Origin: Minutocellus sp. GHC0000111
Lineage: Eukaryota
Reading direction: 5' to 3'
Length of the DNA stretch: 64,000 nt
NCBI GenBank assembly: GCA_977018835.1
Contig: OZ361256.1
Location: 4,898,001-4,962,000 of the forward strand
This document shows, in pieces, positions 9,608 to 35,866 of the stretch. Each line of letters opens with the position of its first letter. The first letter of the stretch is position 1. The notes under the pieces are model-generated. The model had not been told where the DNA came from. It did not search any database and saw only the letters and a program-made list of their open reading frames with translations. Made by a program: the position numbers and the translations under genes.

Positions 9608-12600
9608 ATGAGGTCGCGTCGTTCCAGAAAAGCCCCTGCCGCCACAGCTGCCGCATCATTTCCCCCAGCAGCTGGTAACGTTGCTACTGATCCTATCGGT
9701 TCTGCTGGCATGAGCGGTAGCACTCGTCGCACATCGCCTCGGACGGCGGCATCAGCAGCAACACGATCGGCCGCCGCTACCGGTGATGGAGCACAGGCCA
9801 AGAGCAAGAGCAACACCATGGTAGCGATGGCAGAGGAGCAGAGACAAGCCTCAAAGTCAGGAGCAGACCCACCAGGTCGGAGATCGGCCAATACGAGGAA
9901 GCGAACTAGGACCACCTTCTACAATGCCGATGTGGGTACTGAAAAATCGACTGGGGGTTCAACGGCCAAAGCAGATGGTGCCGCTGAGGCAGAAGCTACG
10001 GGCGGTGCGACATCACGCTCATCGGAGGCTCAGTCGGATACGGCGGGTAGTGCTATCAGTGATAAATCAGCAAAGGCACGTGGCGATTCGAACGGTGGCA
10101 AAACGCAGAAAGCAAGTGCCAACACCGGTGCAACTGTCGGCAGGACCAGCAGACTGTCATTGACGAAGCGTCGGGCCGCTCGAGCACAAGCACAGACCCT
10201 GGCACAGACCAAGACGAAGGATCAAGTCCAAGTGCAGCCTTCACCTGGGAGGGCAAAGGGACAAAAGTACCGGGTCGGTACTGTCATATCCAAAGATTTT
10301 GATGGAGTTGGTAAGTGGATAGAATGCTTGACATGTCCTGAGTTAAATTGCAATGCTATGGAATGAATCATGCATCGTAAGATTTCGTTGGAACTTTACT
10401 TAATTATCCATCATTCGTTGAAAATTCCATCCAAACAAATTGCTGATTAGCGTATCGAAATGATATTATTTCGTACGATGCCAAGGCTCGGTATTACAAG
10501 GTCCGATATGTGGAGGATGGTGACGAGGAGGAGCTGGAGGAAGCCGAAATTGAGCGTTTCCTGGACCCACTGGATTGTTCTTCCGATGCCGATAGTAGCA
10601 TTGCCGTTTCTATTACAGCAGCAGCAGTGACTACTGATGTGACCACCGCTGGTAAAAAGACAAGTGCCGACGAGTCTGCAATAGGGTCCAAGGATGTTGC
10701 AGCAGCAAAGCCCGAGGGGAAGACTAGAGGCGCTACTGCTGCTGCTGCTCAGGAGGATGCGGTGACAGCAAAATCGACTGACCGTGGGAAAGGAGATGAG
10801 GCTGCTGCCGCAAAGGATGGGCCCAAGAAGAATCAAGAGACAAGTGATCTTTATCTAATTGGAACTGAAATATCCAAAGATTTTGATGGAGTCGGTAAGT
10901 GCATTCAGAGCGAGTACATTGCATTTTTCCAAATCTATGCCCATGTTTTACACTCGTTCAGAGCCGATCTTTAATTTCTCACCCAACCACAACAATAATC
11001 TTCTACCCAAATGCTACCAATAACATATCAGCCTATCGAGGAGAAGTTGTTTCGTATGACCAGGGTTCTAAATTCTACAAGATCCGATATTCCGATGGTG
11101 ATGAGGAGGAGATGGACGCGAAGGATATGAGAGTTCATGTCGTACATTCTACTGGAACGAAGACAGATGATGCAGGCGCCGCCACTAAGAATGGTGACGC
11201 CAAGAAGAAGTCCAATGGCAAAAAGGCCGGAGCGAAAATAGTTGATTCGTCGGAGATCAGTGTGAAGGCGGGCGATGATGCCGGCGCCGGCACCAAGAAG
11301 GGCGGTACGAAGAAGGCCAACGCCAAGAAGGGCGATTCCAAAAAGGCTGCGTCCTCGGAGGTCGGTGGGAAGATTGATGGCGGTACAAGTGAGAGTGCAG
11401 GCGATCATTCTGGCGCTTCTGCTGGTGATGACGGAGCTCAGAAGTCTAGTAAGAGTGCAAATAAGGGTGGCAGATCGAAAGAAGGCAAGAAGTCGGACGC
11501 AACAAATGAAGCGTCGAAGCCTTCGGATCCACCAATTTCGAGTCGAGATGATATCCTTCGGGCCGCAACGCAATTGGCTGCCACCAAAACGCCCGTCTCT
11601 GCAACCAGTACCAGTACTAGTACCATACCCAAGAAATCTGACGGGGGGCTGGAAGAAAAGGAGACGTTTCATCCCGGTCATGTATGCAGAGATGCACAAT
11701 TTTACACTACGCTGAATGATGAAACGCCATTCGATTGCTCCGAAAAGCTAGGTTGCGAGTGCAATGATCTCATTTCTGTCAATCGCAAACGATACAAGAG
11801 ATTGAATGCCAAATCAAAGCTACAGCAGGGTACAATCCTCCGAATTCCAGAGAAACGTGACGTTGAGAAGGTGCTACAACTTTACAAGTACAAGGATGGG
11901 GAGCCAAAGCTTGACTACTGTTACGTTTGCCTCGAGATTGAGAGTCCTGACGGTCCTGAGATGCTCCTGTGTGATGGTGATAGCTGTGATAAGGCCTGTC
12001 ACCTATCCTGCACGCACGATAAGCTCAATGCTGTTCCTGATGGCAATTGGTATTGCAAGAGCTGTCAAGACAAAAACAGTTCCAGTATCAGCAGTAAGCC
12101 AAAGAAGGACGAGACGAAGAAAAGATCAAAGCTAAAGCGTGTTCCCAAAGCAAGTAGATCAAAGGGCTCTGGTACGAGAACATCGGTATCCTCCTCAACC
12201 CCTAATTTGTCTTCTGTCCGGCCAGTCACTCCGGCTTCTTACGATGTGATGGATTCTCTTGCTTTTCTCGGGCAGAGTACGGCACCGGCATCGGCCTTGG
12301 CGTCAGCTCCATTACCAAGCAAGTCCCGCAGTGCCAAGTCCAAGCAAAAGCAGAAACAAACCAAGAGCCCTCCTCGTCCAAAGACTCCAAAAGATCAAGA
12401 ATCAATCTTATCGTCTCCTGCGAATCTCCCCAGCAAGAAGTTGCTCGCAGTGTTGGATGGACAAGTTGTCGAGGATTCGACTACTAGCGACAACGCTCAC
12501 GTGGCGACTACGACTGAGAGATCGGCCGCTAAGAAAATGAAAGGTGCTGCTGCTACTGCCACTGCCAGCAAGAAGAAGAAAAAGGGGAAAAACAAGGACA

Positions 12601-13916
12601 ATAACAATTCGACTCCTATGGATAGCATCGCATTGACTGTGGAAGAAGAGTTTAAGCAATTCGAAAGGACAAGGCTGAAGGGCGAGAGACAGACTATTGT
12701 CCTACGAATTCGCCGTCTCAAGGAAGAAATAACATCTCTGCAAGATCATGGCAGAGCTGCAGCTGCCAAAAAGGGAGGAGAGAAGCCCGAATCAGCCTTA
12801 TCTCGTACCAAGAAAATTACTTGGAAACAACTGGAGCTGAAGAATCTTGAAGGCGAGGAGAAGAGACTCACAAATCGTCTTGATGAACTCTCAGAAAATG
12901 CCTCTTCTTTATCATCTGCAATCGAGGAGGCCGATGACTCAGATGCTTCCGTCACAGCCAAGCCTTCTTCTAGCAATGGCAAGGCTATCAAGAAAAAGAA
13001 GGCTCGAGGATCTACGAATGGCAAAAAGAAGAAAGAGAGTGATAATGTCGCTTCTGACGCTCCAACGAAAGCAACTGCTGCCGATGCCAGCACCGCCAGC
13101 GGTATTGATGCCAAGAAGCGCTCTTCTTCAACAAAGTCTGGTCAGAAGAAACGAAAACAGCCATCGGGTAGCAGCGATGACGAAGATACTGAAAGTGATG
13201 ACCAACCAAAGACCAAGGCTAAGAAGAAGGCTAAAACCTCCGTAAAAAAAATATCAACGAAGAAGGGATTGAGCGACATCCAACGTAAGCGCGACCAAGC
13301 CCGAAGGAAACGTAAGCAGCTGAAGCTTTCTCGCCGTTCCTCGAAATCAAGCAGTGCTGGGGATAATGACGATGACAGCGATGAGGACTACTCACAGGTT
13401 TGGGTCAATAATGACGCAAATGATTCTACTGACCATAATCTTCCACCTGATATATCATCGGACGAACGTCCTGCGAAAAAAAAGAAGCGCCAAAGCCGCC
13501 GCCAGAGTGGTAATAGTACCGGGAGAGGCAGGGGGAGTAAGCCCCGATGGCTTCCCTGTGGATCCTGCCTTGGTTGCACACAGACCAAAGACTGCGGTCG
13601 TTGTCGCTCCTGCCTTGAGCGTCCTTCAGAAGCTACCAATGCTCGTTCCACTGGAAGCTTCCAGCGCTGCATATGCATACAGCGGCAATGCTTGGCGCCT
13701 ACGCACAGAGGTGGTTCCAGTGCTAATGGGGACGATGTCGATATTTCTACCCCGACACTACCACCAGCTACCGACGTCAGTAGCGCGAGCCAAGAAAAGG
13801 ATCTCCCGCAGCTATCTGGTGGGGTAAAGCGCAAGAATATGCCTGCCTTGGGCGGCGTGAAGACCAATACTTATTGCCAGCATCAACTTACTTTTATTAT
13901 CATCACTTTCTACTAA
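9608..13916 (+). CDS. Chromatin reader: 2x Tudor-like, LysM-like, PHD finger, coiled coil, CXXC zinc finger; exons 9608-10310, 10451-10894, 11032-13916 (3' end uncertain)
   Basis: Two repeats of GTxISKDFDGV/AYR...Y...YKxRYxxGDEEE; C4HC3 PHD (CYVC...CDGDSCDKACHLSC...WYCKSC); CGSCLGCTQTKDCGRCRSC...CIQRQC; in-phase GT-AG introns. Confidence 0.85.
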
Positions 13917-29386: not shown

Positions 29387-29487
29387 ATAGCTGCTGCAGG
29401 GCGGGCCCGCCAAAAAAACGCACGAAGCCAGACCACTCGACTGACTCCTCACTCGACTCGATCGACTCTCGAAAGCGGCAGACTTCA

Positions 29488-29683
29488 TGTTGAAACCGTG
29501 GGATACGTACGTACGTATACATACGTACGGTACGTACGGTGATCAGACCACTGACTCAGTGCCCTCTCCTGACCGTTGATCCATGGGCCAACGACATCTC
29601 CGATGGCCCATTTTTCATCTACGTAGGTCCTGTTAACCTCTACTAGCTATATCTATCTAGCTTAGCTTTAGGACCTCTTAGCA
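29488..29683 (+). repeat. 5' LTR
   Basis: Matches 35543-35738 with 3 mismatches in 196 bp. Confidence 0.97.
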
Positions 29684-29992
29684 GACCTACGTGATACATC
29701 TTTTCCACCCGTGCTCGCCCCATTTCGGTTCGCACCTCACCGGTTTGTCTTTTGGGTTTTCTCACTCGTCGTCACACGCAAGAAAAACCGACACATCTTC
29801 AATCGGCCAAAACGACCGTTTCTTTCGACAATATTGGAACGACGATCCAATCCCTTCCCCGAAAGTCCTGACCAGATCGACCCATCCAATCGATCACACT
29901 TCTCTGGATCGAACCTTCTGTCGATCACACGTCTCGCAGCAGCAACGCCGCCGTGCTGCCTGTCTTCGCTGCTGACTGACTGAAACACCAGC

Positions 29993-31287
29993 ATGAATCC
30001 CGACGCAGTTTTTGGCCAACCTCTCGGCGCAGCGCCGATTCTCCCCACCAAGTTAATCACACGTATGAATGACCCAGGACAACCTCCCCAACGCGAGCGT
30101 GTTGCCAAAGCGCTCAAGGAACTTCACAACAAGCGGCGGCCAGCACTGTTCTCCAGCAGGCAGGGTGCAATGACCACAACCTCGGCCATTTGGGCCTCGT
30201 CGTCAGCGATGCCGAACACACCACCAAAAGTAACGGCCGACCACATGTGCCTCCGGCAAATCCTGGCCCCAGCCCCACCATTCCCGCCGTGGCCAATCTA
30301 GACCAACAACGCGATTGTGCAATCCGGGGACGTTGCATCGAAAAGGGCCACTACAACTTGCACGAGCAAGTCAACACGGCGCTCAAGAATCTCCTCCTCG
30401 ACTCGATCGACGCCGTCTACATCAATCATCTCGAAGATGACATGCTCGGTTTCCAGCCAGTCACCATCCGCCAAATCATCGACAGCATTGCCGATCGCTG
30501 CTTGAAATTCAACGAGACTCAGAAGGAGGAATTAGAGAAGCAGCTCGAGAAGCAGCACGACGGGGGACCCATCGACACCCACATCGCCACATTCAACAAA
30601 GTCTTCAAGGCGTTTGAAACGGCCGGCGAACCCTTCACCAACAAGCAAAAGGTCTCCAAGTTCTGCCGCTCCGTGCGCAGGTTCTCATTGGCAAAGAAGG
30701 CATGCGAGGACTGGGACGACAGACCGGAGGCCGAACGCACGTGGGCCAACATGCAGTCGGACTTCCGCGATCGGTGTGATAAGAAGATGGCCAATGCCAC
30801 CACCGAAGCGGCAGGATATCATGGCGCGAATTTGGCCTCATCGGCCTCGGACGATCCATTTCTTTCTCGAGCCGATCTCCTTTTGGCTGACACCACCGAA
30901 GCCCTCAAGACCAACCAAGCCACGATGGCGATCCTCGCCAAAAAGAGCAACGAGAAGGATGACACCATTGCCAAACTTCGCCAAGAAATAGCTTCACTCA
31001 AGGCCGAGAACCGCGTTCTGCGTGAGGGACGCAACCATGCTGGTGGCAGTGGAGGCTGCCGCGGCGGTGGCCAGCAGAACGGCGCCGGCCACTTCCCAGG
31101 CCAAGGTCCTAACCTCAACCGCCAGGAGAAGCGGGAACTGCAGTCGATCCTCCCCAGAGGCCATTATTGCCACACGTGCGGCTATTCGTCCAACCACCCC
31201 AGCTTTGAATGCACTTGCAAAGGGCCCAACCACGTTGATAACGCCACCAAGTGCAATCCTTGCGGTGGTAGCTCGCGTCGTAACTGA
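29993..31287 (+). pseudogene. gag: Retrotransposon gag, frameshifted near 30130-30170
   Basis: GHLGLV motif, WxxxPEAERTWANMQ, C-terminal YCHTCGY...HPSFEC...H...AT..NP.GGS zinc-knuckle region. Confidence 0.85.
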
Positions 31288-34200
31288 GCGGGAGGGACGG
31301 TGGATATTAATCAGTATAAAATAGAGGACAGCATGTCTGAATCCACCTCCTCCCCGCCTTCGTTAGCTTTTCTTACGTCAAAAAGCAAACCTCCAACTCA
31401 AGAGCCAATCTTCCTCGCAGCAGACACTGGAACGACGGGACATTTTGTCCAGAAGCCCCAACACCCATCGTGCGATGGCCCTATTTTCAACGTCCAACAG
31501 ACAGCAATTCCTATCAGCGTCACCCTTCCGGATAACAGCACAATGACGAACACCCACGAGGCCACGCTTCGCCTCCCTGGGGTTTCCCCATCGGCTAGCA
31601 AGGCCTATATTTTCAACAACATGGCATCATCGCTCCTATCGATTGGGCAGCTGTGTGACGATGGATGCATTGCCACTTTCGATAAGGATTCGGTAGTCAT
31701 CGCCAAGGACAATGCCGTCATTTTGCAAGGTAAACGAGACCCCTCAACGAAATTGTGGATGGTAGATCTTAATTGCTCGCCCACCATGTCGCCGCTCCCC
31801 GGCCCCAACGTCATCCAACATGCTGCCAACGCCGCAATTGCCCAGGAGACGGTTCCGGAACGTGTAGCCTTTTTACATTGGTGCGCTGGCAGTCCTCAGC
31901 TATCTACCTGGTGCAAAGCAATCGATGCGGGATTTTATAGATCTTGGCCAGGCCTCACATCAAAGCTTGTACGTAAGCACATGCCACAGTCGATACCGAT
32001 GATTAAAGGTCACTTAGACCAGCAGCGCAAGAACATCAGGTCGACCAAGCCCAAACGGTCGATGGCTACGCCAAAATCTCTCCCTGGGGTGGACGAAACC
32101 GAGCAGGATCTCCACCCGGCACAACACCAACAGCGCACCAACTATGTCTTTGCTGATTGTCATGACATAACGGGCCAGATCTTCTCAGATCAGCCCGGCC
32201 GTTTCTTGGTATCGTCTATTTCTGGCCACCAGCACATAATGGTCGTCTATGACTATGACTCCAACAGCATCTTGGCCGAACCAAGGAAAAGCCGATCGGG
32301 AACGGAAATGCGCCGAGCGTACCAAACTATTTTCGAATACCTCTCCAAGCGAGGATTTCGCCCAAAATTGCAACGATTGGATAATGAAGTGAGTCGAGAG
32401 CTGAAGGAGTTCATGGAAGAAAAGGATGTAGATTTTCAATTGACCCCAACGCACTCCCACCGCCGAAATGCGGCCGAACGAGCCATTCGAACCTTTAAGA
32501 ATCATTTCATTGCGATTCTCTGTGGTGCCGATCCCGACTTTCCCCTCATCTTGTGGGATAAATTGCTGGAGCAGGCGGTAATGACCCTCAATTTCCTGAG
32601 AGCATCCCGAGTCAACCCTCGACTATCAGCGTACGAGCAACTCAATGGCGGCTTTGATTTCAATCGCACGCCTCTCGGCCCCCTCGGATGCAAGGTCATC
32701 TTTCACGAGATGCCCTCGGCACGCGGCTCTTGGTCCCCGCATGGCGTTGATGGGTACTATGTCGGTCCAGCCATGGAACACTACCGGTGTTACAAGGTTT
32801 GGATTGAGGAAACTCGGGTGGAACGCACTGGTAACACACTCGTCTGGCTCCCCAAAATGATTCCGGTGCCCAAAACGTCGTCGGCCGATGCAGCAATAGT
32901 CGCAGCTCATGAACTCCTGCACGCTCTACAGAATCCACATCCAGCGGCACCCCTTGCTCCCCTTCGAGACGAGCATCGTCAAGCTTTAGAAAAGCTCTCC
33001 GAGATTTTCAACAGCGTGACCCCAGCAGAATCTGCCACCTCCGCCTCTGATGAGACGATGCAGACAACCGCAGCTCCGAGGGTGCTGGAGAACGATGACG
33101 ACTCCCAACGATTCCGCCTCGGTACCATCGTCGCCAAAGTGTTTGGAGATCGCAATTACAAGGGTAGAGTCGTTGCATTTGACAAGAAGTATAAGTACTA
33201 CAAAATCAAATACGAGGACGACGACGTAGAAGAGATGAACGAGACTGAAGTAGGCCGTCACCTTGTCTCCAACCCCAACGCTCCGTTACCTCAGCCCCAG
33301 CAACCTCCGAGGGTGGCAAAATCCTCCACATGTGATGCAGCCACCACTAAAAGCCGTCGATCACGTCGATCCAACGCGCCACCTCGCTCGTCCGTTTCTT
33401 CCAACTACTACAATCCTTTGGCTGCAGCAGACGAGCCCAACGGCGACGATGATGATAATCATGACGACGATGCAACCGTCGTAACATCCAATCAAAGTTC
33501 CAATGCCCCCACCTCCCGTCGGCAACGTAAACGCAAGTCTCCAACGATCGATACCACTCCAACATTACCAGCTCCAGCAAAATCGACAAGCAAGTCCAAA
33601 CCATCGACCGCCAAACCACCTCGACGACGATCATGCCGTCAGCGAGGGTACATTCCACATCGGAACCCTCCCCCACGGCCATCATCTCGTCGTAGCACCC
33701 ACCACGTGGCCAACATGGCAGCTTTCTCGCCTTTACCAAACCTCCAACACTTTGCTAACGCCGTCGTCCATCCCGATACTGGTGCAATGCTTGAACACCG
33801 CGACCTCCTCAAAACGAACATGAGGGACCAATTCATTCAAGCAAACATCGATGAAATTGGACGGCTAACGGACGGCCGAGTTGGAAACAGTGCTAGCATT
33901 CCCTCCAATACAATGGCTTTCGTCCACTGGTCCGAACTGCCTCGGGGAAAAAAGCCACATACCTCCGCATTGTCGCCGACTATCGCTCCCATAAACCAAA
34001 TCCCAATCGAGTTCGATGGACTGCAGGAGGCGACAAAATTCATCACCCTGGTACAGTCTCGACCCCGACCGCTGAAATGTTGACTGCAAAGTTACTTTTC
34101 AACAGCGTCATCTCTACAGACAACGCTCGTTTCATGGGAATTGACATCAGTGACTTCTATCTCAGTAGCACCATGCCAGAGCCAGAATGGATGTGGGCGC

Positions 34201-35494
34201 CAGTAGCTCTCATCCCCGACGAAGTCATGGAAGCCTACGACCTCCACGACAAAGTAAAGAATGGTCGAGCATTGGTCAGAATCGATGGCGGAATGCATGG
34301 ATTACCCCAGGCAGGGCGCCTAGCCTACGATCAACTTGTCAAGCATCTCAAACCCCATGGCTATTTCCCTTGCAAGCTTGCTGCCGGCCTTTGGAGGCAC
34401 AAAATCCGCCCAATTACCTTTTGCCTAACCGTTGACGATTTTGGAGCAAAGCATGTCTCGGGAAAGAGCATGCAGACCATCTCATTCAGGCCCTCAACTC
34501 CAAGTATGAGATCACTGCCGATTGGGAAGGCCGACTTTATTGTGGCATTCAACTCGAGTGGAACTACGAGGCCAAATGGGTGGATCTATCTGTGCCTAAC
34601 TACGTCAAGGAGATGCGCCACAAGTTCCAACACGACCGCCCCTCACGGCCCGAGCATGCGCCACATCGATGGAATCGTCCGACGCATGGCCCGGGACCCC
34701 AGATGCCAGAACCGGAAGACGACTCACCACCACTCGACGCCAAAGGCATCAACGAAATTCAACAGGTGGTGGGCAGCTCCTTGCACTGTGGTCGAGCAAT
34801 TGATTCAACAATTTCACCGGCGCTCAATGGCATCTCAGCGGAACAATCCAAAGCTACCGAGCGCACTCGACAAGATGCCAAGAAGCTTCTAGATTACCTT
34901 GCAACCCATCCCGACGCAGTCATTCGATGCGTCAAGTCAGACATGATCCCACATGCACATGGCGACGCCTCCTGCTTGTCAGCCCCGAAATCAAGAAGCA
35001 AGCTCGGAGGGTGCTTCTACCTAAGCTCCCGACCTAAGGACCCGCACCGCCAGCCTGACTCAAGTGATCCCATGCCACCAATGAATGGAGCCATCCTCGT
35101 CAATGCCAATGTCATCAAGCATGTAATGTCCTCAGCCAGCCGCTGAAGCCGAATTGGGAGGATTGTTTTTCAACATGAAAGAAAGATGCATGCAGCACCA
35201 ATCCGGGCAGCACTAGAAGAAATGGGTCACCCGCAGCCCCCTACTGCTATCGTCGTTGACAACTCTACAGCATCTGGAATCGCCAATAAAACCGTCAAGC
35301 AAAGACGGTCTAAGGCCATGGACATGAGATTCCACTGGGTCCAAGATCGCACAGAGCAACGACAACTCCATCCAGGTGTGCCTAGGCACTGGAGGAAAGG
35401 AGCGCAAAATTTGGCCGATTATTTTACAAAGCACCATCCCGCCCGCTACCATGTCGACATGCGACCAGTCTACTTACATGTAGATTCCAATTAG
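31288..35494 (+). pseudogene. pol: Retrotransposon pol (PR-IN-Tudor-RT-RNaseH) with several frameshifts (about 33950, 34460, 35140-35190)
   Basis: ADTGTTGHF; SDQPGRF, LDNE, NAAERAIRTFKNHF; GIDISDFYL, GLPQAG, VDDFG; DAS, EAELGG, DNSTA, ADYFTK. Confidence 0.93.
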
Positions 35495-35542
35495 GACTCT
35501 ACATGTAGATTCAATGGCACTAGTCATTGATCTGCGAGGGTG

Positions 35543-35738
35543 TGTTGATGCCGTGGGATACGTACGTACGTATACATACGTACGGTACGTACGGTGATCA
35601 GACCACTGACTCAGTGCCCTCTCCTGACCGTTGATCCATGGGCCAACGACATCTCCGATGGCCCATTTTTCATCTACGTAGGTCCTATTAACCTCTACTA
35701 GCTATATCTATCTAGCTTAGCTTTAGGACCTCTTAGCA
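35543..35738 (+). repeat. 3' LTR
   Basis: Copy of 29488-29683, followed by TSD CTTCA. Confidence 0.97.
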
Positions 35739-35866
35739 CTTCAGTCAGTCAGCCATGCCAAGCGGGATCTGCAGAACTACATGTACCGGTACTGCAGATC
35801 TAAACACATGTACAGCCAGGTTCTACATCAAGTACACATTGTAATACTCTAAAAATAAGATTCACC

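Follow-up and report, generated by a model that had tools for sequence, protein, structure and literature searches.

The window analysed in this study, a 64,000-nucleotide stretch of DNA from Minutocellus sp. GHC0000111 (contig OZ361256.1), contains a Ty1/copia LTR retrotransposon of 6,251 nt at 29488–35738 on the forward strand and a host gene of chromatin type. The element has TG..CA LTRs, a 5-bp target-site duplication and the domain order PR-IN-RT-RH, and its integrase tail carries a Tudor domain. The features referred to below are as follows.

9608–13916, +: host chromatin-type gene with two intron-split PF21743 Tudors, a PHD (~11919–12065; 25 bits, cut-off 24) and a CXXC-like domain (~13542–13691; 25.3 bits, just below the cut-off of 26.5)
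10265–10310 joined to 10451–10566, and 10852–10894 joined to 11032–11144, +: host Tudor repeats
29483–29487, +: 5′ target-site duplication CTTCA, repeated at 35739–35743
29488–29683, +: 5′ LTR, 196 nt, TG...CA, 3 mismatches to the 3′ LTR
30073–31287, +: open part of the gag ORF, its 5′ end apparently out of frame, its TGA stop in frame with pol
31288–35527, +: pol (PR-IN-RT-RH), with frameshifts near 33945–33954 and 34457–34475; three segments by tblastn against the intact 1399-aa Pol P0007
31288–34083, +: pol ORF P0001, 931 aa, holding the Tudor in frame
32173–32856, +: integrase core (32173 to ~32650) and SH3-like C-terminal domain (32680–32856), common to CoDi-I relatives
33112–33267, +: PTM/DIR17-type Tudor (PF21743) in the integrase tail, between PRV motifs at 33070 and 33301
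33268–33744, +: low-complexity basic linker after the Tudor
33700–33768, +: AN-M/AN-A motifs directly before RT (which starts at ~33745), the inferred IN/RT cleavage region
35543–35738, +: 3′ LTR

The window copy is dead, since its Pol is frameshifted twice in RT (the three alignment segments against P0007), and its gag has indels relative to other copies near 30125. The gag TGA is followed directly by pol in the same frame (31285–31290), which suggests readthrough. The element is young. A contig of run X2 holds the empty site with a single CTTCA, indicating that the insertion is polymorphic, and the one known insertion site is intergenic. Contigs from an RNA run (X7) span the Tudor at 32951–33318 with 0 differences, such contigs being no measure of transcription, and the runs with element contigs are labelled sponge, marine metagenome or coded organisms. 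On contigs of runs X7, X10 and X1, position 33037 is joined to the 3′ end of the LTR and a new flank, a junction that marks a derivative copy from which Tudor and RT are missing. The element is placed in CoDi-I provisionally: over the IN region it is 60% identical to P. tricornutum proteins, with which it shares a tree, those proteins themselves carrying no CoDi group name. The named species among the 120 nearest Pol relatives are Phaeodactylum tricornutum and Fragilaria crotonensis, and a neighbouring gene has its best Atlas cluster most often in Bacillariophyta, both of which indicate that the host is probably a diatom.

Both the genomic copies and the window element show TpA-to-CpA/TpG hypermutation. 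In the genomic copies (P0126–P0139), 79 of 222 conserved Tyr were changed (45 to Cys, 33 to His) compared with 3 of 199 Phe and none of 78 Trp. At 20 of 57 Tyr codons the window copy has His or Cys, all five Tyr of the Tudor are intact, and 15 of the 18 listed G/C variants lie in a TpA context. The same TpA signature is reported in the accessible part of a study of Bigelowiella natans (bioRxiv 10.64898/2026.01.13.699255).

The first-pass annotation had proposed that the integrase C-terminus, between IN and RT, carries a Royal-family reader that is not a chromodomain, and had expected an HMM check to return a PTM/DIR17-like Tudor; both proposals were borne out. The peptide that it pointed out reads from 33112 in frame in the pol ORF, after the integrase core and the SH3-like domain and before RT, and a closing helix extends the domain to ~33267. 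The full ORF matched Pfam PF21743 (PTM_DIR17_Tudor) at 45 bits (E 9e-12) and the domain alone did so at 50.9 bits, against a cut-off of 27.2, and a Pfam scan of the full pol ORF gave no match to Chromo families at E<=1. The identity of the domain as a PTM/DIR17-type Tudor is confirmed. Duplication of the integrase SH3-like domain, which matched SH3_retrovirus at E 2.5e-4, under the cut-off, was ruled out as its source (HHalign probability 0.1%).

The anticipated Tudor fold was also recovered. AlphaFold2 with a 53-row alignment predicted a barrel of four long strands with a C-terminal helix at pLDDT 85.1, and the top Foldseek rows for this model were Tudor domains (probability 1.0, none at E<=0.001), with SMN and TDRD3 among the matches. 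A wide structure search gave Z values up to 6.6, the Z of 6.5 to RDM15 being tied with those to PWWP, PHF19, SMN and a designed SH3 barrel. By PDB profile search the nearest domain was the lamin-B receptor (LBR) Tudor (E 2.9e-5), and the RDM15 Tudor (7de9) was found at E 5.8e-4. From a single sequence the Tudor folded poorly (pLDDT 58), and the corresponding PDB search returned chance matches only. The ligand of the LBR Tudor is not known to be an H3K4me1 mark.

The RDM15 Tudor binds H3K4me1 through W616, Y623 and Y641 with D643 and D645, and H3R2 through E647, as described in the accessible part of the report (PMC8184781). The pocket predicted for ORF P0001 comprises F619, Y624, Y642, D644, D646 and E648 (codons at 33142, 33157, 33211, 33217, 33223 and 33229), so that by alignment spacing a three-residue aromatic cage, two Asp and one Glu of the RDM15 type are all present. 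The last five of these are spaced as in RDM15, with two Tyr 18 apart followed by Asp, Asp and Glu, and the match of F619 to the W616 column is drawn through the LBR alignment. The two domains superpose with an rmsd of 2.4 over 54 residues at 20% identity. They differ in that RDM15/PDS5C (PDB 7DE9) is a host RdDM factor, that its Trp616 is Phe in the element and that its Gln654 is without a clear equivalent. All six positions are kept in 5 of 8 Tudors of the window element's group, in 30 of 50 element-linked Tudors and in 180 of 235 others; the pocket is thus a family trait retained by the element rather than an element-specific one. The Y623 equivalent is His in 8 of 25 Tudors of the second CoDi-I group described below.

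To place the domain among its relatives we examined the best 120 of 998 Pol relatives. The Tudor was present in only four of these 120 (P0006–P0009) and missing from both P. tricornutum proteins among them, and no degraded Tudor was seen in the 116 that lack it. Since 116 of the best 120 of 998 do without it, the lineage does not require the domain. In the unrooted Pol tree the five Tudor rows group together on one branch (SH-aLRT 99) amid Tudor-less relatives. No other globular insert was found among the 119 IN–RT linkers examined, and no Pfam Chromo match in the Pol proteins scanned. As to the earlier concern that the domain might be unique to one copy or unconstrained, four element families carry it intact and conserved, at 63–88% identity with 30 of 51 columns invariant. 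This is about twice the conservation of the flanking linker (52 of 174 columns; Fisher p 2.4e-4) and not different from that of the protease (80/123) or the RT start (57/91), while the IN core is better conserved (129/161, p 0.005). The Tudor was present in 28 of the 52 proteins examined from the four families; in the remaining 24, either the piece stops short of the Tudor region or the best alignments fall elsewhere.

The two Tudor repeats of the host gene are each interrupted by an intron, of 140 nt at 10311–10450 and of 137 nt (GT-AG) at 10895–11031, both after the same DFDGV motif; their second exons score 31.7 and 36.7 bits, above the cut-off of PF21743. The host peptide quoted earlier arises only after splicing of the intron at 10895–11031. 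An orthologue-like locus matches the gene at 65% over 491 aa. The resemblance between element and host protein noted in the first pass stands as common membership of one family beyond chance, with alignment scores of 120 and 113 that were reached in 0 of 2000 shuffles each (maximum 67). No special tie accompanies it, as at 42% and 39% identity the two repeats rank only 90 and 138 of 287 Tudors, and thus the host gene is not shown to be the donor. A recent capture from its spliced mRNA could account for the shared family, the shared window, this degree of identity and the lack of an intron in the element Tudor. It is hardly credible, however, and already largely refuted: beyond the ranks, there is no appreciable DNA similarity (best local DNA scores 19 and 24), element and host Tudors are not neighbours in the Tudor tree, and the four families, which shared the domain before they split, have diverged by up to 14% in their IN cores.

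The Tudor family has further carriers, both mobile and host. In representative and longer-protein searches, 24 of 152 proteins matched the CoDi-I Pol profile together with the Tudor, a few of them only by weak linker matches. Placing 11 fragments on the Pol tree, from which five short fragments had been dropped because they filled too few columns and another two because they fell under the 45-column limit, yielded a second Tudor-bearing CoDi-I group (n=8), with 3 changes needed. A search for full-length Pol of this group added one new partial protein (P0323). Tudor class labels were assigned partly by eye (7 of 25 for the second CoDi-I group, 9 of 10 for distant copia, 2 of 3 for LINE and 1 of 3 for integrase).

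The domain scan covered 20 ORFs from 27 metagenome loci. One locus (L023, 1–3570) is a distant copia with gag_pre-integrase, SH3, Tudor and RVT_2, its RT being 21% identical to that of P0007 and its Tudor at the same place. A PDZ-like stretch after this Tudor was seen by eye only and a further check did not confirm it; several short matches (P0234, P0283) apparently have the Tudor and the PDZ-like stretch in reverse order. Two other loci (L012, 1664–3319; L014, 1671–3332) are rve integrases with a C-terminal Tudor whose 3.6-kb contigs show no RT, and P0265 is another RT-less rve integrase ending in a Tudor. Integrases of Polintons and mavirus have a chromodomain at that C-terminal place. When viral contigs were scanned using the L014 integrase or the Tudor alignment as query, neither gave a match, so that a Polinton/virophage identity of L012 and L014 is only a possibility. 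LINE-type ORF2 proteins carry the domain at two loci, L013 and L011 (801–7523), the latter with endonuclease, Tudor after the RT region and weak zf-RVT, and P0296 is a resolvase-recombinase with an N-terminal Tudor. Most other scanned ORFs are host-type (cyclin, MBD, CXXC, PHD, bromodomain, amine oxidase, EF-hand, RCC1).

These carriers bear on how the window element's branch came by its Tudor. Instead of an independent capture by that branch, the domain could be old in CoDi-I copia and repeatedly lost, a history that we consider possible if somewhat doubtful. Two separate CoDi-I groups do carry it, the Pol tree is unrooted, and the Tudor-only tree (162 rows, 53 columns) has 9 of 159 branches starred, so that groups are not separable on it and no donor can be named. 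On the other side, a single Tudor-bearing clade was rejected (AU p 0.011; 9 rows vs 40), with fragments that are short, fill 10–43% of columns and in part sit on long branches, and there is no degraded Tudor in the 116 relatives. Because several Tudor-less branches lie between the two groups, an old Tudor would need many losses.

Tudor-bearing elements of another superfamily have been described. We take cd20401 to be the AtPTM-like Tudor. The Tudor of Gypsy-10_Ec32 of Ectocarpus, which is called the first transposable element with a Tudor and has a homologue in Tribonema, was aligned to cd20401 in the accessible part of the report (PMC12477816, 2025) and, likened through that label, is probably of the same family as the window element's. 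Both are stramenopile LTR retrotransposons whose integrase C-terminus carries a Tudor; the Ectocarpus element is Ty3/Gypsy with the domain at the Pol end, whereas the window element is Ty1/copia with the domain inside Pol, between IN and RT. The Tudor-bearing copia thus adds to the known reader-bearing retrotransposons, and the idea of a reader on the integrase has a precedent in Gypsy-10_Ec32. In diatoms, CoDi-A copia have been reported with a putative chromodomain at the IN C-terminus (PMC2774666, 2009; PMC2806351; PMC5348765). By similarity these CoDi-A/CoDi-I copia probably belong to the same lineage as the window element, and a reader-like module has been reported in them at this position, but all 7 CoDi-A rows were scored chromo-positive in the accessible portions of those papers, whereas the Tudor occurs in 4 of the best 120 of 998 relatives. 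Compared by description, the published CoDi-A module may correspond to the common SH3-like domain or to some other insert. Chromoviruses and Chronos (Gao et al. 2008, as cited in PMC6673714 and PMC5348765) likewise have a Royal-family reader on the integrase tail with a targeting model, although they represent another superfamily and fold class, and their chromodomains lead to heterochromatin whereas the RDM15-like pocket of the element is predicted to read a monomethyl mark. The window element itself is not a chromovirus, as IN precedes RT and the domain is a PF21743 Tudor with no Chromo match. CopiaMBD of arthropods is, like the window element as interpreted here, a copia Pol with a captured host chromatin reader; it reads methyl-CpG DNA and its binding was shown experimentally (PMC6673714, accessible part), whereas the window Tudor is known from sequence and model. 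In the literature covered, which left most subscription journals and Repbase outside, no published description of a Tudor in a copia element was found, and the accessible portions of bioRxiv 2024.10.15.618488, bioRxiv 2025.10.24.684338 and PMC3441728 held nothing further on the subject.

We propose, at a probability of roughly 60% and by analogy with these systems, that an ancestor of the window element's copia branch took up a PTM/DIR17-type Tudor that would bind a lower-methylated histone lysine and tether the integration complex to chosen chromatin. The domain would stay on the mature integrase after Pol processing, its pocket, matching that of RDM15, is predicted to bind an H3K4me1-like mark, and the tethered integrase may bias insertion as chromodomains do in chromoviruses. 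AN-type boundary motifs occur in the ORF only at residues 180, 808 and 823, the PR/IN and IN/RT ends, with none between the IN core and the Tudor, which suggests that the Tudor remains on integrase. In a family-wide test of this cleavage motif 78 of 121 were anchored, a loose form of it also matching 34 linkers. Weighing against the proposal are the absence of the Tudor from most relatives, its lower conservation than the IN core, a pocket common to the wider Tudor family, the closer sequence match to the LBR Tudor, and a structural score to RDM15 no higher than to several other small barrels.

The main rival to a histone-reading tether is a functional Tudor with another binding role, in which it would act while particles assemble, in nuclear import or in evading silencing, by recognising unmodified histones, nucleic acid, or a methyl-arginine or methyl-lysine protein of the host. 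That the LBR Tudor is the closest sequence match, that SMN and TDRD3 are among the fold matches, and that the domain also occurs in LINE ORF2 and in a resolvase-recombinase, which use no DDE integrase, are all consistent with such a role, and an alternative of this kind is also raised for the captured domain of CopiaMBD in the accessible part of that paper (PMC6673714). We nevertheless judge it unlikely, since the host carriers are largely of chromatin type (PHD, CXXC, MBD, bromodomain, amine oxidase; also cyclins, EF-hand and RCC1), the RDM15-type acidic pair is kept, and in copia and RT-less integrases the Tudor sits at the chromodomain position. A neutral passenger of a variable linker would explain why most relatives do without the domain and why genomic copies gather changes in it, yet it is very improbable: the Tudor is conserved like the protease and the RT start and twice as well as the linker, and the changes in genomic copies follow the TpA mutation process across the whole element.

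It is important to understand how copia elements choose their insertion sites in compact, gene-dense algal genomes, where this choice is largely unknown. A domain of ~50 residues with a named predicted pocket offers a direct test of the tethering proposal, and sister families, some having the Tudor and others lacking it, provide a natural control. If the Tudor does read a monomethyl mark, reader-guided integration would extend beyond chromodomains and heterochromatin. That the Tudor is found in four kinds of element suggests that one host module was put to use convergently. A broader and rather unlikely extension, which we put forward tentatively, is that one host Tudor family was recurrently recruited as a targeting module, independently by at least two CoDi-I branches, distant copia, LINE, RT-less integrase and the brown-algal Gypsy, all of which would have kept a pocket for monomethyl-lysine that directs insertion by reading H3K4me1-like rather than heterochromatin marks.

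The variable regions of CoDi-I Pol hold other short features. A (P/L)RV motif occurs 223 times in 116 of 119 IN–RT linkers (P0001, P0006–P0125), against a mean of 21.6 and a maximum of 34 after shuffling, and two copies flank the Tudor at window positions 33070 and 33301; it may be a short linear motif recognised by a host partner. Another CoDi-I Pol, P0044, has a CCCH zinc finger between PR and IN, at residues 177–198.
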